Below, piece by piece: positions 13,691 through 63,533 of a DNA stretch of 64,000 bases. Source of the DNA: Methylococcales bacterium (GTDB lineage: Bacteria > Pseudomonadota > Gammaproteobacteria > Methylococcales > Methylomonadaceae); the NCBI GenBank assembly GCA_026398935.1, contig JAPLRW010000271.1, forward strand, positions 1,132 through 65,131. The letters are read 5' to 3'. Position 1 is the stretch's first letter, and each line of letters opens with the position of its first letter. Below the pieces are notes generated by a model that was not told the origin of the DNA, did not search any database, and was given only the letters and a program-made list of their open reading frames with translations. A program made the position numbers and the translations under genes.

Positions 13691-13825
13691 TCAGGCGCTG
13701 TAATGCGCAGAGCATAGAAGCGCATTCTCGCTGACGCTTAATAATCGCTAAAAAATATTGAAAAATAACCTTTCTGGCAACCTCAATAATGCAATCCTTT
13801 ATAAGGACGAAGAATTTTATAAAGT

Positions 13826-15127
13826 ATGAAATTAAAATTAGAAAATATAGGCATGATACGCCACGCGGATATTAAACTAGATGGATTGACTGTTATCGCT
13901 GGAGAAAACGATACGGGTAAAAGCACTGTAGGAAAACTCATATTTTCTTTAATTAAAGCCTTTAACCGTTATGAGCAGGATTTGAATGAAAGCAAGTCAG
14001 ATAGAGTTTTTGAATTAATTGAAAAAATTTATTTTCAACTGCGTAAAGAGTATGATTTTAAAGAGAATATGGAAATTAGAGATGCGTTTTTTCCACCTGT
14101 TTTTTTGAGGGAGTTTAAAAAAGCTGACGACCCGATCGCCCTAATTGATCATAAAATCATTCTCTTAAGAAAAATTGACGCAGTTAATGTTATTGCTGAT
14201 CTCGAATTAATAAAAAAAATATACTCAGAAGATGAAGATAAAGAGTCAAGTATTAAAAGAGCATTAGCCAAGGCTTTTGTTTCTGAATTTTATTTTGAAT
14301 TAACTCCAAAAAACTCTACTTTAGCCTCTCATATTAATCTTTCGGAAGGGCCAAATAAGATATTCGATATCGCTATAAAAGACAATAAAATTGACGATCT
14401 GAAGCTATATGACGACTTAACTTTTAATGACGTTACTCTTATTGAAACGCCTATTTTTTTGCAAATGTATGATTTAATCCGTTCTGCGTCGACTCTATTT
14501 GAAATGGAAGACAGTCGTGAGCGATCATTAAAATCTAGTCGACCAAATCCAAAGGTGGCATTACATGTAAAAGACTTAATTTCAAAACTAGAAAATGCAC
14601 AATATTTTTCTTTTCAACAAAAGCGTTTATTTGAAGATAATTTGGACAGCTTATTAGCTGATATTACTAAAATAACAAAAGGATCAGGATTTACCTTTGA
14701 AAAGAAAGATAGAGACTTCTACTTTAATAAAAACGGGAACACGAATTTCAAATCCATTAATACGGCAACCGGTTTAAAAGCATTTGGTATTATTCAATTG
14801 TTGATTCAGGCAAGTATTCTTAATGAAAGAAGTTTGCTTATTATTGACGAGCCAGAAATTCATCTACATCCGAAGTGGCAAGTAGAATATGCCAAATTAA
14901 TAGTAACTTTAGTGAAAAATAATATTCCAGTTTTATTGACTTCACATAGTCCAGAAATAATACAAGCATTAAGTACTTTCAGTGAAGAATTTGGAGTGCA
15001 AAATAGAACTACTTATTATCTTACAGAGAGTGATGGCGTAGTTTCTGACATAAATGATGTTAGCGAAGATATTAATAAGATATTCATTAAACTAGCCGAA
15101 CCATTACATAATTTGGTTTGGGATTAA
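13826..15127 (+). CDS. ABC/SMC-like AAA ATPase (AAA_15/AAA_21-type), candidate defence-system sensor/motor
   Basis: 433 aa. Walker A GENDTGKST (res 26-34) is followed by a long charged helical insertion, then NTATGLKAFG, Walker B LLIIDEPEIHLHP and LLTSHSPE. Sampled 60-nt lines are about 30% G+C, against about 45% in the flanking core genes. Confidence 0.8.
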   Translation: MKLKLENIGMIRHADIKLDGLTVIAGENDTGKSTVGKLIFSLIKAFNRYEQDLNESKSDRVFELIEKIYFQLRKEYDFKENMEIRDAFFPPVFLREFKKADDPIALIDHKIILLRKIDAVNVIADLELIKKIYSEDEDKESSIKRALAKAFVSEFYFELTPKNSTLASHINLSEGPNKIFDIAIKDNKIDDLKLYDDLTFNDVTLIETPIFLQMYDLIRSASTLFEMEDSRERSLKSSRPNPKVALHVKDLISKLENAQYFSFQQKRLFEDNLDSLLADITKITKGSGFTFEKKDRDFYFNKNGNTNFKSINTATGLKAFGIIQLLIQASILNERSLLIIDEPEIHLHPKWQVEYAKLIVTLVKNNIPVLLTSHSPEIIQALSTFSEEFGVQNRTTYYLTESDGVVSDINDVSEDINKIFIKLAEPLHNLVWD

Positions 15128-15132
15128 CAGGC

Positions 15133-15777
15133 ATGCTTGAAAGACTAATAGAATTTGGAATTAATGGGCATTTTTTTTATTTTATGCCAATAGGTCAATT
15201 AGAAAAGAGTTGTTGTTCTAACTCAAAATTAGAGGTTATTGATTTTGACAAAACCAAAGAAATACTGTCCAACATAACAAAATTACAACAACCAAAATCG
15301 GCTGACGCACTAAAAATATTACCTTTGTTGGATCGTATAGACTTCATAGAATTAAAGGGATTTAAAAAATTCATTCAGTACAACCAAGATAAACCAGATA
15401 TTGACAAAGAAATAAGCTATCAAGTTGAAAAGTTTGGTTTGACTGAAAAAATAAGAGATAGTTTATTTGTTTTGACCTTACTGACAAAACTGAAAGAATT
15501 TGAATGTAAAAAATCAGAACGCGAACAATATCAAAAAGCTACAAAAAACTATATTATAGTCGTTGATATTGATTTATATCAAAATCCTATAAAAGATAGA
15601 TTGATTACTTTGGCCTTTTTGAGTGAAGCTACCATCAATATAAAAAGCAGAATCTTAGATGAATTAAGTCAATCGGTTGATCGCATATTGATTTCTAGCC
15701 TAGAAAATCTTCAAAAGCCTATGATTATTAGTTGCAAAAATATAGATAGCTACTATCAAAAGCTTTTAAAAAAATAA
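15133..15777 (+). CDS. uncharacterised 214-aa partner protein of the AAA ATPase (possible nuclease-type effector)
   Basis: The ATG lies 5 nt after the ATPase stop, and the ORF is open from TTG 15118. Composition is equally AT-rich. I recognise no family. Acidic/Lys motifs are present: D58..D70-F-I-E73-L-K75 and VVD145-I-D147. Confidence 0.6.
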   Translation: MLERLIEFGINGHFFYFMPIGQLEKSCCSNSKLEVIDFDKTKEILSNITKLQQPKSADALKILPLLDRIDFIELKGFKKFIQYNQDKPDIDKEISYQVEKFGLTEKIRDSLFVLTLLTKLKEFECKKSEREQYQKATKNYIIVVDIDLYQNPIKDRLITLAFLSEATINIKSRILDELSQSVDRILISSLENLQKPMIISCKNIDSYYQKLLKK

Positions 15778-15878
15778 TAGAGGTTGTTGAGTTCAGGATA
15801 GATACACGGTTAAAGTTCAAACCCATTTCATCTGTCTGTCGTTCTCGCGCTTTAACTTAAGAACAATGCAACGAGGAC

Positions 15879-16616
15879 TTACCGTCTAACCGCCCGCATC
15901 ACTTGTTTCAAATCCTTTACGGTCTGTGCTAAGCCGGAAAACAGTGCTTGAGCAATGATTGAATGCCCGATATTCAGCTCAACAAGCTCAGGAATCTGAC
16001 AAATGGCTTCAACATTGTAGAAGTTTAAACCATGCCCTGCGTTGACCTGTAAACCACATTGCTTAGCGTAGTGTGCGGCGTGTTGAATGCGTTGCAGCTC
16101 TACTTGTTGTTGCGCGCGACCACTGGCATCGGCATAAGCGCCGGTATGTAATTCAATAACGGGCGCGCCCGCTTTAAGCGCCGCATCAATTTGTGCGGCT
16201 TCAGGATCAATAAACAACGACACTTCGATCCCGCCATCCCCTAAGCGTTGGCAAGCACCACGCACTGCAGTAAAGTTAGCGACAACATCCAGTCCGCCTT
16301 CGGTGGTTAATTCCGCTCTTTTTTCTGGAACCAAACAACAGGCAAATGGCTGTACTTGCAAGGCAATACGCAGCATCTCTTCGGTGACGCCCATTTCTAA
16401 GTTCAAGCGCGTTTGTAGCACCTCTTTTAAACGTAAAATATCGCTATCCTGAATATGCCGACGGTCTTCCCGTAAATGTGCGGTAATGCCATCAGCGCCG
16501 GCTTGTTCTGCCACCAGCGCAGCTTGTACAGGATCAGGGTAAATCGTTCCGCGCGCCTGCCGAACGGTGGCGATATGATCAATATTAACGCCCAGTAAAA
16601 TAAGATTTTTCTGCAT
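15879..16616 (-). CDS. pdxJ: pyridoxine 5'-phosphate synthase
   Basis: [32 protein letters not shown] matches the PdxJ signature. It sits in the conserved recO-pdxJ position. Confidence 0.95.
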
Positions 16617-16619
16617 ACA

Positions 16620-17366
16620 TTAGAGTTGTTGGTAGATTTTTGCAAGAATGGCGCGCGTTTTTAACGGCTTACCCTGTAGGTGAAAATTAATGACATTGCG
16701 CATGATGTATTTGGCTTCGCTGAGTGCCTGAGTATCCGTAAATACTTTGTCATTTATTGCTTGGATGGTTTTGCCGCTGACCGTTCCGGCGACATGTTCA
16801 ATGACCCCTCGCTCAGCCTGAAAAAAATACTGTGCGTCAGTGTTAATGGGTGCTTCGGTATGGGCATCGTACTCGGTTAATAATGCTAAACCAATGTGTT
16901 GCATAAGATTGAGTTCAAACAAGCGCAAGACTGCTTCTACCTGCAATAAAGGCGTGAAACCAGCAGGATTTTCAGTCTCACGCATCACACGGGTTAATTG
17001 CATTAAACAATCGCGATAATCAGCATAAACCTCAGGATGCGGATCGTGTTTATGGCAAAAACGCCCGATTAATTCATTAACATAAAAACCACAATACAGC
17101 GCAAGCCCCGTTAAGTCAGTGTGAATGGGCTGTGCCTCAACCTGCGTCAAGGTCTTGAGTTCTGCTTTACCGCAATAAGAAACGCTTAATGCTTTAAACG
17201 GTAACAACAATCCTGCCGTTCTGGACTTGGCTTTTCTAACGCCCTTGGCTAAAATCGAAATAATGCCATAATCACGCGTGAATACCTCTAAGATTAAGCT
17301 GGTTTCTCGGTAGCGACGGTGATGTAAGATGAATCCCGGCTGACACTCAACAACGGTTTCAGTCAT
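16620..17366 (-). CDS. recO: DNA repair protein RecO
   Basis: 248 aa. The N-terminus (GFILHHRRYRETSLILEVFTRDYG) is RecO OB-fold-like. The gene lies between era and pdxJ as in the E. coli rnc-era-recO-pdxJ operon. Confidence 0.9.
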   Translation of the reverse strand: MTETVVECQPGFILHHRRYRETSLILEVFTRDYGIISILAKGVRKAKSRTAGLLLPFKALSVSYCGKAELKTLTQVEAQPIHTDLTGLALYCGFYVNELIGRFCHKHDPHPEVYADYRDCLMQLTRVMRETENPAGFTPLLQVEAVLRLFELNLMQHIGLALLTEYDAHTEAPINTDAQYFFQAERGVIEHVAGTVSGKTIQAINDKVFTDTQALSEAKYIMRNVINFHLQGKPLKTRAILAKIYQQL

Positions 17367-18248
17367 TAAATCCTAAGCTTTGTAACGCACGCTCATTATC
17401 CGACCAGCCTTTTTTAACTTTTACCCACAATTGTAGATAGACTTTTTGATCCAATAGTTTTTCAATATCTTTACGCGCATCCGAGCCGATACTTTTTAGC
17501 ATTTCACCTTGAGCGCCAATAACAATGCTTTTTTGCGATAAGCGTTCTACCCAAATAATGGCGTATATTTTACTGATCGTCGGCAGCTCTTCAAACTTTT
17601 CTATTTCCACGGTTATCGAATAGGGCAATTCATCCCCTAAACGCCGGGTTAATTTTTCACGCACAATTTCAGCACATAAAAAACGCTCCGGTCGGTCAGT
17701 AATTTGATCAGCAGGATAGATTAAATCTGCTTCTGGCAACATGGACATTAAAACGGTCTCAAGCTCCACCAGATTGGTTCTTTTTAGCGCAGAAATGGGT
17801 AAGATATGTGCAAAGGGATAGCGTTTTTGCGCGGTTTCAAAAAAAGCCAAGACGGTATCGCGATTCTTGATTTTATCAATTTTATTTACCACCAAAACAA
17901 CGGGCAAACCTGCTTGTTCCAGCTTTTTAAAAATGATGTCATCATAATCATGCCACATCAGGCCATCAATCAGCCACACCACAACATCTACACCCAAAAG
18001 AGTCGTGTCTGCGGTACGGTTAAGATAACGATTTAACGCGCGACCAGCTCCTTCATGCATGCCAGGCGTATCCATATAAATGGCCTGCCCTGCGGCGGTG
18101 GTGTTAATGCCTAATATACGATGCCGCGTGGTTTGCGGCTTTCTGCAGGTAATGCTGATTTTTTGACCGAGCAGATGGTTCATGAGGGTTTGAGGGTTGA
18201 TTTGCCAACATTAGGACGACCAATTAACGCAACTGTGCCACAATTCAT
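17359..18248 (-). pseudogene. era: GTPase Era, reading frame broken by an 8-bp tandem duplication after the P-loop
   Basis: A 22-codon ORF (18248..18180: MNCGTVALIGRPNVGKSTLKPS*) carries the G1 P-loop. The 274-aa ORF 17359..18183 (MNHLLGQKISITCRKPQTTRHR..) carries the rest, including the KH domain. Removing one copy of TGAGGGTT (18183-18198) restores ..GKSTLMNHLLGQK.. and a protein of about 293 aa. Confidence 0.85.
18183..18198. repeat. perfect 8-bp tandem duplication TGAGGGTT x2 inside era
   Basis: Read directly: tgagggtt tgagggtt at 18183-18190 and 18191-18198. Confidence 0.95.
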
Positions 18249-18272
18249 ACTATTAATCCCTTTGTTAAACAA

Positions 18273-18974
18273 TTAAAGGCGGTTCTCACTAGGCCTCTTA
18301 TCCTTTTGCAACAATTGCAGCATTTGTTCTGCTGAGGCTTGTTCCGCTCTTTTTCTTGAAATACCCGTTGATACAGTGGTTTCGTTCAGTAACTTAACCT
18401 TGCACTCTACCTTGAAGGTTTGTTGATGTGCCAGTCCAGACATGCTGAGCAAACGGTATTCCGGTAGCTCTTGCTGCTTAGCTTGCATCAATTCCTGTAG
18501 CAAGGTTTTAGGGTCTTTGCTCCAGTTTTCCAAGGTTAATTGTGCTAATTTTTCTTCAAATAAGCGCAGTATCCACGTTTGGCAAACCATAATGCCTTGA
18601 TCCTTCAGCAATGCGCCCATAATGGATTCCAGCGCATCGGATAAAATAGAATCTCGGCGATACCCGCCACTTTTTAATTCTCCAGAACCCAGCAGCAAGT
18701 AATCACCTAGCTGATGATCTCTGGCTATGCTGGCCAAGGAGGTTTGATTCACTAAGCTGGCACGTAACCTGCTCAATTCACCCTCACTGGCATCGGGGAA
18801 TAATTCTGTTAATTTCTGTGCAATAACAAACCCTAAAACAGCATCGCCTAAAAACTCAAGCCGCTCATTATTTTTAGCGCCTTTGCTGCGATGGGTTAAG
18901 GCCATTACAAAAAGTTCAGGGTTGTTAAACTGCAATCCCAATTGATTGCAAAGTAATTCTGACGCTTTAATCAC
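18273..18974 (-). CDS. rnc: ribonuclease III
   Basis: RNase III signature NERLEFLGDAVLG and a C-terminal dsRBD. It lies upstream of era. Confidence 0.95.
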   Translation of the reverse strand: MIKASELLCNQLGLQFNNPELFVMALTHRSKGAKNNERLEFLGDAVLGFVIAQKLTELFPDASEGELSRLRASLVNQTSLASIARDHQLGDYLLLGSGELKSGGYRRDSILSDALESIMGALLKDQGIMVCQTWILRLFEEKLAQLTLENWSKDPKTLLQELMQAKQQELPEYRLLSMSGLAHQQTFKVECKVKLLNETTVSTGISRKRAEQASAEQMLQLLQKDKRPSENRL

Positions 18975-19354: not shown

Positions 19355-19376
19355 AGCAACCTCTTCGTGTTTATGG

Positions 19377-39634: not shown

Positions 39635-40453
39635 TTATTGCGTAAAAAAGCGACGATGTTGTAGAACAGGAAAGGCTGCACGCATTTTTTCTAATTTTTC
39701 AAGATCAATGTCCGCACTCACAAAACTACCACCGGTTTTGTGACACGCTAACACGCTTCCCCAAGGATCAATCACCATGCTGTGTCCAAATGTTTGCCGT
39801 CCATTCAAATGGAAGCCGCCCTGATTTGGCGCAATCACATAACATAAATTTTCAATGGCGCGTGCTCGCAATAACACTTCCCAATGCGCCGCACCGGTTT
39901 GAGCGGTAAATGCCGAAGGGACAACCAATATTTGTAGACCTTGCATTTGCATGCTGCGCATCATTTCTGGAAACCGCAAATCATAACAAATCGCAATGCC
40001 CAATTTGCCGAAGGGTGTATCGATAACCAATGGCTCGCTGCCTGCTTCAATAGAGTCAGATTCACGATAAACCTCATCGGTATCCGGCACATTCACATCA
40101 AACAAATGCACTTTGTCATAACGTCCAACCCGTTCACCTTGATCGTTATACACTAAGCACGCGGCTCTAATTTTATCGGCAGCGTTGGCGACCAGCGGAA
40201 CAGTACCCGCGACAATCCATACACCATGTTTTTTAGCCGTTTCGGCTAAAAAATTCTGTATGGGGCCTGCGCCATCTACTTCTTTATGCTTAAGTTTATC
40301 GGTAGCCAACTCGCCCATTAGTGCAAAGTTTTCAGGCAATGCCACTAATTTGGCACCTGCGCGGACTGCTTCTGCGATGAGCTTATCCGCTTCCAGCAAA
40401 TTAAAGTTTACATTCGGAGAAGATGCCATTTGTATGGCCGCACAGTGACTCAT
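39635..40453 (-). CDS. carbon-nitrogen hydrolase (nitrilase superfamily) protein
   Basis: 272 aa with E-K-C triad context (LVALPENF; KVHLFD; GIAICYDLRFPE). Confidence 0.88.
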   Translation of the reverse strand: MSHCAAIQMASSPNVNFNLLEADKLIAEAVRAGAKLVALPENFALMGELATDKLKHKEVDGAGPIQNFLAETAKKHGVWIVAGTVPLVANAADKIRAACLVYNDQGERVGRYDKVHLFDVNVPDTDEVYRESDSIEAGSEPLVIDTPFGKLGIAICYDLRFPEMMRSMQMQGLQILVVPSAFTAQTGAAHWEVLLRARAIENLCYVIAPNQGGFHLNGRQTFGHSMVIDPWGSVLACHKTGGSFVSADIDLEKLEKMRAAFPVLQHRRFFTQ

Positions 40454-43400
40454 TATTTCTCTCTATTAGTGTTTTTAATGTTTTTCTTTAACCAAGAAAA
40501 ATCCGTTAATCCGTACCAAGTTTTTTGTAGCAAGCCATCATTTTCACGTAAGCGAATAACCTGGGGATTGTCCCACTGCCCCAAGATTTTATACTCTGAA
40601 CCCAATAAAAATCCAGCCTGTGAATTACCCGTTACTGCTTCCAAGCTGAAGGTCAAAATTCTGTCCACAATTGTACCAGCAATAGGCAGGGCTGCAGAAC
40701 TTTTAGGCAGCACCCTAGCGTGATAATCCATAGAGCGCTCCGCCAAATGGGCAACGCCAGTAATATTGACTTCAGCGGGTACGGCATCAACCACAAGATT
40801 GTTGGTTATCGCATCGCCCTTATCGAGATCAAAATGCCCGTGAATCCGATTAAACGTCAGTCCTTCTGAGAGCATATCGCTAAAATCCAAACGTAAACGC
40901 CGCTCCCATTGCTCAAACGCTAAAAAACCTAACGGCTACTGCGTCGGTTGCTTTTAAGTCTTGCGCAACGCCCATCGTCGATAAAAACTCACCAAACCCA
41001 CGCATAGCAAAGGTACCCTTTACGGTCGTTAATTGCTTCTCGGCATTATTAATCGTCCAATCGCCTGTCAAATTTAATTCGCCTTGTGCATTTTTAAGGC
41101 TCATCTGCTTAAATGCAATGCCATTAGGGATACGCGCAGTGTCGAGTGCTAACATGCCCACATTAACGCCCTCCCATACAACTTGTTTACTGGTGAGGTT
41201 AAATAAAGGCAAGTGTTTATCCTCAATCAATTGCGGCTCACTGGCTTTTAAATGGCTTAATCCGGATAAATTGATATACTCCAGATCCAGTAACATCGGC
41301 TTGTCTTGCGTTGCGTCCGAAGGCTTATCAATATGTCCTTTCAATAATTGGCTATCAATATCCATGTGCCAAGCTTGCTGTGCGTGCTGCATTTGTGCGT
41401 CTAGCTTACCCAAAGGCTGTCCTTGCCATAATGCCTGATTGGCTTTTAGGGTTATCTGTTCAAAGAAAGGGGGAGAGGGGGCAAGGGCGGCCTCCGTTTC
41501 CGAACTGGCTAAATCAATCCAATCGGCTAGCGTACACTGTTCTACATTAATCCTTAAGTTACCGCCTTTTGCAGGAACAGCGCCCAATTCACCCGCGCCA
41601 ATGCGTACTTCGGCGGCGACCAATGATTTTTCTTTCGTATTAAGCACCATAGATGCCTGCAGAAGCTTGTCCATCTGCAACGTCATCGGCAGTAGCGCCC
41701 CTTCGGTCAAGTTCATGTGTAAATTAACGGGACGTGCTACGGCAGCCAATTTGGCTAGATTATCAGGCAATCTAAGTGCGACACCCACTAAGTCAGATTT
41801 TAATGTGAGGCTTGCAGGCGTCTTATTATTGGGGAGCGTTAAGTTGAGCTGATAATCTGTATCACCCTGCGCATATCGCCAAAGGGGTATGCCAAATTGT
41901 TGTTGCAAATCGATAACATCGGTATGCCCCAAAACAGTCAGCAACATCTTTTCTGTGTTATTTTTAATACTGACATTAATGCCACCGTCTAATGTCTGTC
42001 CTTGTAATTGCCCCGCAATAATACCTCGCTCATTAAATGCAATCTCTCCTTGCAGATGACTGACGGGTAGGGTTAGGGGCAGTACATTTAAACTGACATC
42101 TTGCAAGAGTAAGGAGCCTTGCAATTTTAAAGCATTCTGGTCGACAATCGGCACTTGAATCGCCAAATTGATGGGCGCCAATCCTTGCGGAGTAATGATT
42201 TGTAACAAACGATCAACTTCGTTCTTTATCGGGGACTGCCGCAAATACCCCAGCGTTTGCATAATGTCGCCCGCACCTTTTATATCCACGTTAATATAAG
42301 GATTGACCTGAAAAAAAGACGGGACATTTAAATCGAATTGTTGCAACTTAGCGCCCTGTACGCTGGCTTGTAAGGCGCTAATCTGCATGCCACCGTTATA
42401 AAACAAGACTTCTGCATCAATGTCCCGAACGGGCTCCCAATCTGGGGCATACCGAAAATCGATGCTTTTAAAATCAAGAATTAACTCAAACACGCCTTGT
42501 TTGTGCGGAAAAGGAAAGTCAGCTACGGCTCCTGAAAATAAAAAACCGCGAGGATTAACATACCCCTTAAGCAAGGCTTGTTTTAACCAATTGACGGAGT
42601 CTGTCCCCATCAATCCATCCGGCCAGTAAATTCCAAAGGATTTTATATCACGGCTGCCATTAAAAACGCTCTGCACATCCATCCAGACAGCATGCGTCGA
42701 ACGATTTATTTTAAGTTGCACGTGGCTGTTTGCTTGCATATCAGGCACTGCAAGCGCCAGATTTTGACTGGTGATTACCCAATTCTCAGCGTCTTGTTGC
42801 CACAAAATTTGCGTATGTAGGTCATTTATAGGCAACGGTTTGGCAAAAATACGCGGCAAATCTAGCGCTGTATTTTTGATAGCAAGATCAACAGTGCCTT
42901 GTTGTTGATTGCCCTGAATGTGCCCACTGATATTTGTTATCCCGGGAAAATCATCATGCGTGGCTAATGAAATATGTTCAAAAGCACTTTGTACCGCAAA
43001 TTGCTTAGCGTCCGGTGCTAGCATCAATGAAACGGACTTAAGTTGCCCCTGTAACGCATCAACGGGAAAAGGCAGCGCATCGGCTACACCAAAAAAACGC
43101 CCGACTTGTGCGCTTTGTTGCAAATCAAGCTGTGGTATTTGAATTTCCACACGAGATAAGTCAGCGCTGTGTGCGGTACTTGTACCTTTTAACAATACGC
43201 GAGTATCGGTGAGCTGTATCGCAGCCGAGTTAACGGATAGTGCATCAATCCGTAATGCCCACTGCTCATTTTGATTAATCCAGTTAAAGCGGTTGCGTAA
43301 TTGTTTAATCGCTAAGAGTGCTTGCGCTGGTCGTTGTAGCACCAGTTGCTGTAATTGTGTCGTACCTGTGATAGCTTGCAATTGCGAGTGCTGCCAATAA

Positions 43401-44224
43401 CTCCAGACATTTATCGTACCAACTCCGTCAGTCACCCGGAGATCTAAAGGAAGCGGGTACGCCGTTAATAGCTTAGCTAACTCTAACTGCTTACCTTCAA
43501 TGTAAATTAAACCATTGATACCATCGGCTGTTAAAAAATTACCCCGTAGCTGCATGGACACACTAATGGTGTCACCGTAAGGTTTGGGCAAGGTTACCAG
43601 CATATTAATCAAGTGCCGCTGCCCATCTTGATCGCTTTTCAGGGTCACATTAGCCTCTTTAAAAACCAATGCATCCTTTATGGGTTTGGCTGGCAGCAGT
43701 GAAGGGGATTTTTTTGATGTCGCAGGGAGCATTTCATCCAGCCAAGTTATTTGGCTGTGTAACATTTCAAATTGCGCGGTGTGAAGTATCCATGTGGGCG
43801 GTTCAGTGTTGCTGGCGGGCAAGCCACGCACCGCAATGCTGCCATCGAGATGACGAACGACGGTAGTACGCGCTCCGACTAAGGTGATCCAAGAGGACGC
43901 AAGAATTTGTTTTTGCCCATAACTTTGCAATAAATCCATGCTAAGCCGGATTTCCTGTACATCAAGAGGGGCTTTTTGTGTTGGATCTTCCGCTAAAATT
44001 TGTACGTTTTTTAACAATAATTCAGGTCTAAAACCACGCATGCCTGCGCCTAGGTGGCCAATCTTAACGGGTGCGGAAATTTCTTTGCTGACAATGATTT
44101 CCAGATCTTCTTTGTAATCATTGATGACGCTTAAAATCAAGCGAATAGCGGTTAGGATAAGTGCTATTGTAAGCAATCCCCAAAAAATCAGATGCCGCGT
44201 GGCTCGAGTGATATGATGAATCAT
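40453..44224 (-). pseudogene. yhdP: AsmA-like/YhdP family large envelope protein, split by a +1 frameshift in a homopolymer
   Basis: ORFs 40913..44224 (1103 aa, N-terminal TM anchor) and 40453..40890 (145 aa, contains the ..RRLRLDFSDML.. C-terminal block) are one gene of about 1260 aa. Reading the A6 run (40922-40927; T6 on the coding strand) as 5 nt fuses them (..AVAVRF-LAFEQWERRLRLDFSD..). Confidence 0.8.
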
Positions 44225-47973: not shown

Positions 47974-48000
47974 GTAAGCCTTGTAAGCCTTGTATGGCTT
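47974..48000. repeat. three tandem copies of a 9-mer (GTAAGCCTT, GTAAGCCTT, GTATGGCTT)
   Basis: Read directly in the panD-mraZ intergenic region. Confidence 0.8.
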
Positions 48001-48404: not shown

Positions 48405-48871
48405 TTGTTTCGCGGCATCAGTACCATTAATTTAGATACCAAAGGACGGATCGCTATCCCTACGCGTTATCGCGAGAGTTACAGTCTTGTTGTAATGGCC
48501 AACTGATTGTAACGGTTGCGGTTAATGAACGTTGTGTTGGTGAGCGGGGTTGCCTGTGGCTGTATCCTCTAGCCGAATGGGAACAACTTGAGCAAACCAT
48601 TAGTAAATTACCCACACTGAATAAAATGGCTGGAAAATTGCGCCGATTTGTTATTGGTAATGCGACAGAATGTGAAATGGATAATCAAGGACGCTTGCTA
48701 TTACCTGAAAAGTTAAGAGCATTTGCTGAAATGGATAAAAAATTGATTCTGCTCGGGCAGCTAAATAAATTTGAAATTTGGAATGACACCGCTTGGCTCA
48801 CAAAAGAACACGAATGGTTAGATAGTGATGATCGTGAAGGCCTTGAAGAATTAGAGTCATTAGCCTTTTAA
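48405..48871 (+). pseudogene. mraZ: transcriptional regulator MraZ, interrupted by a 1-nt frameshift
   Basis: The frame from TTG 48405 reads MFRGISTINLDTKGRIAIPTRYRE and then stops at 48504. The rest (LQSCCNGQLIVTV..MAGKLRRFVIG..) continues in the -1 frame to 48871. The junction is at 48477-48478 (gagAGtta), which is one nucleotide short. Confidence 0.85.
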
Positions 48872-61051: not shown

Positions 61052-61313
61052 GCGGCTGTTTTTATACACAGTAGTAATCAATAAAATAAGCGCGTCCCTT
61101 AGACGGTGTATTCATGCTTACTTAATAATAGCGAGCCGATGTATTGTGACATTATTATGCGTCGCGCCGAGCGTCCTTCTATGACGTGACGCGTACACCG
61201 AAACGCGGTAGTATGGTAGATTTTTTAAGCCTTTAAGGCGGTTTGAGTAATTTTAATTGTAGGAGTAATAACTATAGCATAGCAGATGTTTATTTATAGT
61301 CTATGCCTACAGC

Positions 61314-61338
61314 AAATTAATGCTTAAAAATTAATGCT
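61314..61338. repeat. 11-bp direct repeat AAATTAATGCT x2 (period 14) in the murC-murB spacer
   Basis: Copies at 61314-61324 and 61328-61338, read directly. Confidence 0.8.
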
Positions 61339-61505
61339 CCTGCCTTATTGTGATGATTATATAGGCGTGTTTGGATTAACACTCAACAGAACTTAACTGT
61401 TTAGGTTATCACGTACTATTTTAAATGTAGGATTAGTGGCTATAGCCGAGTAGATATAGGAATTGATTTCTTTACCAAAGTACTGATTATAAGTATTTAT
61501 ACGAA

Positions 61506-61534
61506 TTGACTCTTAACATTATATGGAATATAAA
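61506..61534 (+). promoter_or_regulatory. near-consensus sigma-70 promoter inside the murC-murB spacer
   Basis: TTGACT (61506-61511), a 17-nt spacer, then TATAAA (61529-61534), about 175 nt upstream of the murB ATG. It is followed immediately by AAAGTGGA, the same heptamer that opens the candidate MraZ operator at 48361. Confidence 0.45.
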
Positions 61535-61707
61535 GTGGATTATTATAATGGTGCTTTGACTTGCTTTTTAACAGCAAACCGTCCTTGGGTCATTTATGCA
61601 GTAATGGACAGCCCGCCCTTCGACGAGTTCACGATCAGCCATTACCGCGTCTTAAGGTGGCTATCCTTTTTATTTAGTGAAAGATCGCCTATACATCGGC
61701 TTAAATT

Positions 61708-62604: not shown

Positions 62605-63533
62605 GACCATTATCAATTACCAGCCCGACTGATTTTGGGTGTGTAGGCGTGCTGATGGGCGGTGCTGCTGCAGAGCGAGAGGTTTCGCTAAGAAGCGGCG
62701 CGGCGGTTTATGCTGCACTGCAACGTCAAGGCATTCAGGCTCTGGCGATTGATGTTGCGGACAATGCCATCGCAGCGCTACAAGGTCAAAAAATTGATCG
62801 CGTTTTTAATATTATTCATGGTCGTGGTGGTGAGGACGGTGTTTTGCAAGGTGTTTTGCAAACATTAGCCATACCATATACCGGCAGCGGTGTCGCTGCC
62901 TCGGCGTTAAGCATGGACAAGTTAAGAACCAAACTGTGCTGGCAAGGTGCGCAGTTAAATACGCCCGCTTGGTTTCTGTTAAACACCCCTGCAGATATAC
63001 AAGCCTGTATTACGGCATTAGGATTTCCCGTCATCGTAAAACCTGCACAGGAAGGTTCCAGTATTGGTATGAGCAAGGCCAATAATGCAGCTGAATTGTT
63101 AGCCGCATTACAAACAGCGGCTCAATACCAATGTGATGTTTATGCAGAAGCGTGGGTGACTGGCGCTGAATATACGGTAGCCATTTTAAATGGTGAAGCG
63201 CTGCCCGTCATTCGATTAGAGACGCCCCGCAGCTTTTATGATTTTGAAGCTAAATACAAGGCGAATACCACACAGTATCATTGTCCTTGCGGTTTACAGG
63301 CAGACGAGGAGCGGGCGTTACAAGATTTGGCGTTACAGGCATGTGATGTGCTTGGCATTAAAGGCTGGGCGCGAGTGGATGTGTTTATTGATCAACACGG
63401 GTTAGCGCAGTTAATTGAAGTGAATACCGTGCCGGGAATGACCGATCACAGTTTAGTTCCGATGGCGGCAAAGCAGCAAGGAATTGAATTTGATGAATTA
63501 GTCTGGCGGATACTGGAAACAAGTTTTGCTTAA
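62601..63533 (+). CDS. ddl: D-alanine--D-alanine ligase
   Basis: VGVLMGGAAAEREVSLRSG, ATP-grasp motifs (PVIVKPAQEGSSIG) and EVNTVPGMT. ATG 62601 overlaps the murB stop (ATGA). Confidence 0.95.
   Translation: MRPLSITSPTDFGCVGVLMGGAAAEREVSLRSGAAVYAALQRQGIQALAIDVADNAIAALQGQKIDRVFNIIHGRGGEDGVLQGVLQTLAIPYTGSGVAASALSMDKLRTKLCWQGAQLNTPAWFLLNTPADIQACITALGFPVIVKPAQEGSSIGMSKANNAAELLAALQTAAQYQCDVYAEAWVTGAEYTVAILNGEALPVIRLETPRSFYDFEAKYKANTTQYHCPCGLQADEERALQDLALQACDVLGIKGWARVDVFIDQHGLAQLIEVNTVPGMTDHSLVPMAAKQQGIEFDELVWRILETSFA

Follow-up and report, generated by a model that had tools for sequence, protein, structure and literature searches.

Can a gamma-proteobacterium live with an Era GTPase whose P-loop is encoded apart from the rest of the protein? 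This question is raised by the era locus of a Methylococcaceae record, from which a stretch of 64,000 nucleotides (hereafter, the window) has been analysed. As written, the era frame is interrupted right after the P-loop by a short tandem duplication, and the preliminary description of the locus left several causes side by side: an artefact, a recent variant in a subpopulation, or a lesion tolerated by the cell. The balance of the evidence leans to the first two. The lesion is private to the record, era exhibits no relaxed selection, two more private lesions affect mraZ and yhdP, and no recoding signal accompanies the break. The features on which the argument turns, in window coordinates, are the following.

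18183..18198, minus strand: perfect 8-bp tandem duplication, AACCCTCA twice on the coding strand (TGAGGGTT twice on the plus strand)
18180..18248, minus strand: 5' fragment of era, with 22 codons and then TGA, ending in MNCGTVALIGRPNVGKSTLKPS and the stop (also given as ...GRPNVGKSTLKPS and the stop)
17359..18183, minus strand: 3' fragment of era, with 274 codons that begin at Met20 of uninterrupted Era and read MNHLLGQK at their start
18273..18974, minus strand: rnc (RNase III, 233 aa), intact, directly upstream of era
16620..17366, minus strand: recO (248 aa), intact, with an 8-nt overlap with the end of era

At the sequence level, the repeat announced at 18183-18198 was recovered by Tandem Repeats Finder (period 8, 2.0 copies, 100% match, unit TGAGGGTT) and by direct reading of the minus strand, which from 18248 to 18180 runs ATG AAT TGT GGC ACA GTT GCG TTA ATT GGT CGT CCT AAT GTT GGC AAA TCA ACC CTC AAA CCC TCA TGA. 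The same reading confirms the truncation to GKSTLKPS and a stop right after the P-loop, since 22 codons are followed by TGA. In the list of open reading frames (ORFs), the 5' ORF occupies 18180-18272 of the minus strand with the same MNCGTVALIGRPNVGKSTLKPS end, and its stop (18180-18182) overlaps the start of the 274-aa ORF as ATGA, in agreement with the overlap described beforehand; the A of this restart ATG is provided by the second AACCCTCA unit. The era frame is broken after codon 19, leaving G1 on a different chain from G2-G5 and the KH domain. The 5' fragment contributes strand beta1, the P-loop of G1 (GRPNVGKS) and helix alpha1 up to its first turn, and then ends in three foreign residues; its match to Pfam MMR_HSR1 covers positions 1-15, those of the P-loop, and its alignment with E. 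coli Era (1EGA) begins at residue 8. The 3' fragment contains the remaining G domain (G2-G5) and the KH domain, and corresponds to positions 20-291 of the 291 in the NCBIfam Era equivalog NF000908. Both pieces together keep every residue of Era, and the stop overlaps an in-frame ATG. It has to be remarked that the repeat alone is not unusual. The window holds one perfect 8+8 tandem repeat and shuffled sequences a mean of 1.01, which corresponds to chance frequency, so the weight of the repeat derives solely from the fact that relatives have a single unit. A chance repeat was nevertheless rejected as an account of the era break. No microhomology in register was found at the flanks of the duplication, and a nearby TCA...TCA pair is spaced by 7 nt, not 8.

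The identity of the interrupted gene is firmly established. When one repeat unit is skipped, the product has 293 aa and is 100% identical over its full length to a public protein (NCBI MFI3137356.1, 'MAG: GTPase Era [Methylococcaceae bacterium]'; P0001), which upholds the earlier expectation of a normal Era of about 293 aa upon removal of one unit; with this, the descriptive part of the preliminary account is borne out in full. This read-through protein carries Pfam MMR_HSR1 and KH_2, and is a GTPase Era in the sense of NF000908 / TIGR00436, with a G domain bearing a G1 P-loop followed by a KH domain in a chain of around 290-300 aa. Its best 120 homologues all measure 293-294 aa, the 119 that follow P0001 coming from Methylobacter, Methylomicrobium, Crenothrix and related lineages, and it matches E. 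coli Era (PDB 1EGA) with E = 1e-88 over residues 3-293. In this alignment GRPNVGKSTL/MNHLL of the window stands against GRPNVGKSTL/LNKLL of the E. coli protein (the slash marking the cut), which places the break inside helix alpha1, one turn past the GKS of G1. The surroundings are equally conventional, as the order lepA-lepB-DUF4845-rnc-era-recO-pdxJ is found in the window and in four contigs of the same species (L001-L004) and includes the classical rnc-era-recO synteny of gamma-proteobacteria. The host is a Methylococcaceae methanotroph, a gamma-proteobacterium with the usual rnc-era-recO operon, whose species makes Era as one 293-aa chain.

The state of the gene in other members of the species was addressed through exact look-up of P0001 together with the RNase III of the window, a procedure that identified seven contigs from seven different samples (ERZ27287888, GCA_044426755.1, ERZ4201064, SRR24858483, ERR3856788, ERZ27287886 and ERZ27280190; L001-L005, L090 and L091). 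Their nucleotide identity to the window is 97.6-98.9%, which assigns them to the same species. In all seven, AACCCTCA occurs once and era stays open across the site, and the five that span the whole gene encode a complete 293-aa Era. The 8-bp insertion is thus derived and private to the present record. Consistently, exact scans for the duplication junction in genome and JGI metagenome contig collections gave no match, and an exact product look-up of the 274-aa Era piece returned no other assembly on record. At greater distance, matches over Era residues 1-293 were obtained at 80 genome loci of Methylococcales; in the genome contig collection, from which a representative of the species is absent, the best Era is 93% identical, and a search with the first 128 Era residues, directed at partial products of short contigs, gave a best match of 87% identity. 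The literature yielded nothing under the accessions of the related assemblies.

The pattern of substitutions in era provides a second line of evidence. Relative to five of the same-species contigs, the gene shows 8-13 synonymous and 0 nonsynonymous differences, while about 77% of its sites are nonsynonymous. There is no sign of relaxed selection in era and no second lesion inside it. These counts point to purifying selection on the gene for essentially all the time that separates these strains, and differences that are exclusively synonymous imply that the lesion is either very recent or not biological. An established, ageing pseudogene would also have a disrupted frame, but this candidate is ruled out by the lack of relaxed selection or further lesions.

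A closer relative was found in run SRR20698644, from which two Logan contigs (L086 and L092) represent a near-identical strain, with 99.93% identity over 4269 nt and 99.4% over 2653 nt. No indel separates them from the window over 6.9 kb. These contigs end at window positions 17888 and 18473, around 300 bp on either side, so that a hole of 584 bp lies exactly over the era site, perhaps owing to low coverage or to strain bubbles. The partial RNase III product guessed for the intervening Logan contig, assuming a k-1 overlap, was not on record. The intergenic space from lepB to the DUF4845 gene is 6 nt longer in the window than in five same-species contigs (insertion at 19362-19369), and L092 has these 6 nt as well, which identifies them as a true marker of the strain rather than an error. 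Together, this common insertion and the agreement without indels over 6.9 kb argue against a generally sloppy assembly.

A 2.2-kb island of two genes lies on the plus strand at 13703-15879, between lspA and pdxJ; it is present in L086 and absent from the same-species contigs L001 and L002, which have 134 bp instead. The first gene (433 aa) encodes an AAA_15/AAA_21 ATPase, whose best PADLOC matches are PD-T4-4_A, HEC-02A, NsnB and AriA, and the second (219 aa) has no family match. The island is a candidate strain-specific anti-phage defence pair.

Era is not the only gene of the window that is broken. Two further lesions were identified by comparison with the same species.

48405..48871, plus strand: mraZ, 1 nt shorter than the seven same-species loci at about 48476 (CGCGAGAGTTACAG versus CGCGAGGAATTACAG)
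40453..44224, minus strand: yhdP (AsmA-like), lacking at 40932/40933 119 nt that are present in same-species contigs L098 and L099

In mraZ, the loss of 1 nt in a GG pair converts the 155-aa MraZ into ORFs of 33 and 81 aa, and in yhdP the deletion turns the 1296-aa YhdP into ORFs of 1103 and 145 aa, without useful microhomology at the junction. Both lesions are private to the present record, the second one as judged against two same-species contigs. Exact product look-up found neither the 81-aa MraZ nor the 1103-aa YhdP piece on record elsewhere. As with era, neither gene shows relaxed selection: mraZ has otherwise 4 synonymous and 0 nonsynonymous differences, and dN/dS in yhdP is about 0.17 on either side of the deletion. 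The remaining indels relative to the same-species contigs are all intergenic or in frame, and the other genes of the window, as far as they have a full-length NCBIfam equivalog match, are all full length. Three broken genes out of about 58 in 64 kb, era among them, is more than is expected for a healthy free-living genome. Concerning the type of error, the window includes 63 homopolymers (at least 7 A/T or at least 6 G/C), none of which breaks a gene, so this is not a consensus with ordinary homopolymer errors. This agrees with the earlier remark that an 8-bp duplication is not an error of the homopolymer kind; the whole set of lesions (+8 in era, -119 in yhdP and -1 in mraZ) is larger or atypical in comparison.

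Other repeats and length differences were also recorded in the window. Upstream of mraZ, at 47974-47994, an intergenic tandem repeat of GTAAGCCTT (2.3 copies) has one more unit than the same-species contigs that align there. In ddl, a perfect 12-bp tandem repeat (GGTGTTTTGCAA twice, at 62838-62861) encodes GVLQGVLQ; its interpretation as a fresh duplication, or as part of a burst of duplications, was rejected, since these residues fit the G-x-LQG-x-L motif usual in D-Ala-D-Ala ligases and no anomaly of length appears against the family model. Finally, an AT-rich spacer of 656 nt separates murC from murB (61052-61707), whereas in 18 Methylococcales relatives murC ends around 3-43 nt before murB. 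Neither an ORF family nor an Rfam entry matches this spacer, which occurs once in the window and contains an 11-nt perfect inverted repeat at 61134-61144 and 61691-61701; it may be an insertion or the remnant of a small mobile element.

The explanation that best accommodates these observations, and one that we hold with reasonable confidence, is that the living population is misrepresented by the lesion, which derives from an assembly or amplification artefact, or from minority or non-viable molecules. As a biological feature, the duplication is probably not real, and we infer that living cells have an intact era. According to this explanation, the duplication would be a very recent lesion, private to the record, and not an evolved way of making Era. 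Taken literally, the gene would direct the synthesis of a 22-aa peptide with beta1 and the P-loop and, at best, through termination-reinitiation at ATGA, of a 274-aa protein deprived of G1 in which the KH domain is kept. From published genetics, such a protein would be expected to be non-functional and possibly dominant-negative, and the bulk of the living cells of the strain would not carry the lesion.

Two routes may have brought the duplication into the record. A variant from minority or non-viable molecules may have won the consensus, and amplified or low-coverage material can fix single-molecule variants. Alternatively, a medium-scale assembly or amplification error may have survived polishing; besides homopolymer errors, errors of tens to hundreds of bp have been reported in long-read assemblies (PMC8442456). 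Random errors or non-selected variants could easily account for three hits in about 58 genes with one essential gene included. There are also observations that weigh against an artefact. The consensus looks otherwise accurate, with no gene broken at a homopolymer, and a simple 1-nt error such as that of mraZ should fall to polishing, for which reason the sequenced DNA may truly contain at least some of the lesions; indeed, all three could equally be real mutations there. In addition, the unusually clean split of era is the one kind of frameshift in this gene that might be survivable. This cleanness is not discriminating, being a mere precondition of the tolerated case, and a viable lineage requires that the era split be tolerated, which we regard as having a slim chance at best.

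Among the alternatives, the one that survives best is that a viable lineage really has the duplication in fixed form, with Era function kept and the break somehow compensated, be it through non-covalent assembly of the 22-aa peptide with the 274-aa protein, through a rare +8 hop of the ribosome, or through a second era elsewhere. It is unlikely. The arguments in its favor are that the split loses no residue and creates the ATGA overlap, that homopolymers are clean and the near-identical strain agrees without indels over 6.9 kb, and that the other two lesions could be real as well, mraZ and yhdP being dispensable in E. coli. Hopping has in principle a substrate: exactly 8 nt further on there is a second copy both of ACC (Thr) and of CTC (Leu), with a reading that proceeds as TLMNHLLGQK. 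These matched codons exist because any perfect tandem duplication creates them. In the primary sequence, both take-off candidates are followed by ordinary sense codons and not by the signals of a programmed-bypass site, and with neither a stop nor a known stimulator after them hopping would be very rare. A hop at ACC or CTC could only re-create wild-type Era at trace activity at most, as no known bypass stimulator is present. Restart on the second ORF fares no better: no Shine-Dalgarno precedes its ATG (the best candidate matches AGGAGG at 2 of 6 positions), so that any 274-aa product needs termination-reinitiation at ATGA. As for frameshifting, no X_XXY_YYZ slippery heptamer exists in the 22 era codons, and the upstream -1 frame is closed by a TAA, which confines a rescuing shift to the last few codons. 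Both -1 frameshifting and Shine-Dalgarno-driven restart were consequently rejected.

Complementation in trans by a free beta1/P-loop peptide is conceivable and would need a central beta-strand to insert into the rest of the domain, which makes it unlikely. The position of the cut, in helix alpha1 one turn past GKS, argues against retained function; Era GTPase activity is strictly required and even the conservative G1 change K21R is lethal in E. coli (PMC10582724). Moreover, overexpression of the KH domain deprived of its GTPase domain is toxic, and G1 mutants of the human homologue are dominant negative through their KH domain (PMC10582724); by the same token, an Era lacking G1 with an intact KH domain would be expected to be toxic. 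The comparative data add to this, since a split era is found in none of the seven same-species contigs and in no more distant relative examined, and no second copy of era is present within the 64-kb window. In its strongest form, namely that a free-living lake methanotroph lives with an Era cut in alpha1 by means of the 22-aa plus 274-aa assembly or of the +8 hop, the proposal is very improbable.

The possibility that the duplication is real and era simply lost, Era being dispensable in a lineage that accumulates pseudogenes (for instance following a bottleneck, within an enrichment culture or as a mutator), is more doubtful than that of retained function. It would account for three independent loss-of-function lesions in 64 kb, and it finds precedents in S. 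aureus, S. pneumoniae and Mycobacterium, where era is not essential, although at a cost (PMC10582724; see also PMC6738653). In this respect, the preliminary description was right to call era essential in E. coli and too broad in extending this to most bacteria. According to a 2023 review, era is essential in the gamma-proteobacteria tested, E. coli, Salmonella and Haemophilus, as well as in Synechococcus (PMC10582724). Loss of the gene is also at odds with the exclusively synonymous differences in era, with the dN/dS of yhdP on both sides of its deletion, which would make the decay extremely recent, and with the full length of the other genes that match an NCBIfam equivalog. Programmed recoding, that is, an evolved frameshift or bypass regulating Era synthesis, has in its favor only that the duplication incidentally leaves matched codons at a distance of 8 nt, and is so improbable as to be negligible, as no slippery heptamer is present and its absence from seven same-species contigs, the best 120 protein homologues and 80 genomic loci effectively refutes it.

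The distinction between these explanations has practical consequences. If the duplication is an artefact or a minority variant, era, mraZ and yhdP of the present record need to be flagged, and the record is unfit as evidence for a dispensable or split era in Methylococcaceae. With at least three suspect lesions in it, this record also illustrates that larger, gene-breaking lesions can be present in an assembly whose homopolymers are clean. If, on the other hand, the duplication were real and fixed, it would define a gamma-proteobacterium without Era, or a P-loop GTPase that works with the P-loop supplied by another chain of 22 aa or is made by ribosomal hopping, a surprise for specialists in ribosome assembly and in protein engineering. 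Were function kept, the locus would constitute a natural two-piece P-loop GTPase or an essential gene sustained by bypassing.

Several known systems resemble the locus in part. Natural split genes coupled by ATGA, and proteins reconstituted by fragment complementation, share with it two adjacent ORFs that encode every ancestral residue and a stop/start overlap. Unlike natural splits, which separate domains from each other and show conservation within a clade, the cut lies here in alpha1 of the G domain, leaves a fragment of 22 aa and appears in one record. This uniqueness, together with the missing Shine-Dalgarno before the second ATG, indicates that it is not an evolved split gene. Translational bypassing is known from phage T4 gene 60 and from short-range hops from one matched codon to another in E. 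coli. The identical take-off and landing codons (ACC or CTC, 8 nt apart), from which landing restores the wild-type reading, recall these cases. Unlike an efficient bypass, the site shows in its primary sequence neither a stop or rare codon after take-off nor an evident take-off stem-loop or nascent-peptide signal, and it is not conserved. Lacking both signal and conservation, it does not belong to the recoding family.

Spontaneous short tandem duplications, produced by slippage or template switching, offer a better parallel for the lesion itself, which is a perfect head-to-tail copy, is derived and would in principle be revertible by loss of one unit. It differs from them in having no in-register microhomology, and an era null is not expected to persist in a gamma-proteobacterium. 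The closest match is provided by housekeeping genes fragmented by indels in draft, metagenome-assembled and long-read assemblies (PMC12007338, PMC8442456). Unlike in the usual cases of this kind, the lesions consist here of 8 bp duplicated in tandem, 119 bp deleted and 1 nt lost from a GG pair, and homopolymers are clean. The locus shares with these fragmented genes a small indel that leaves a conserved single-copy gene as two neighbouring ORFs on one strand, intact close relatives, no sign of relaxed selection and several breaks per contig.
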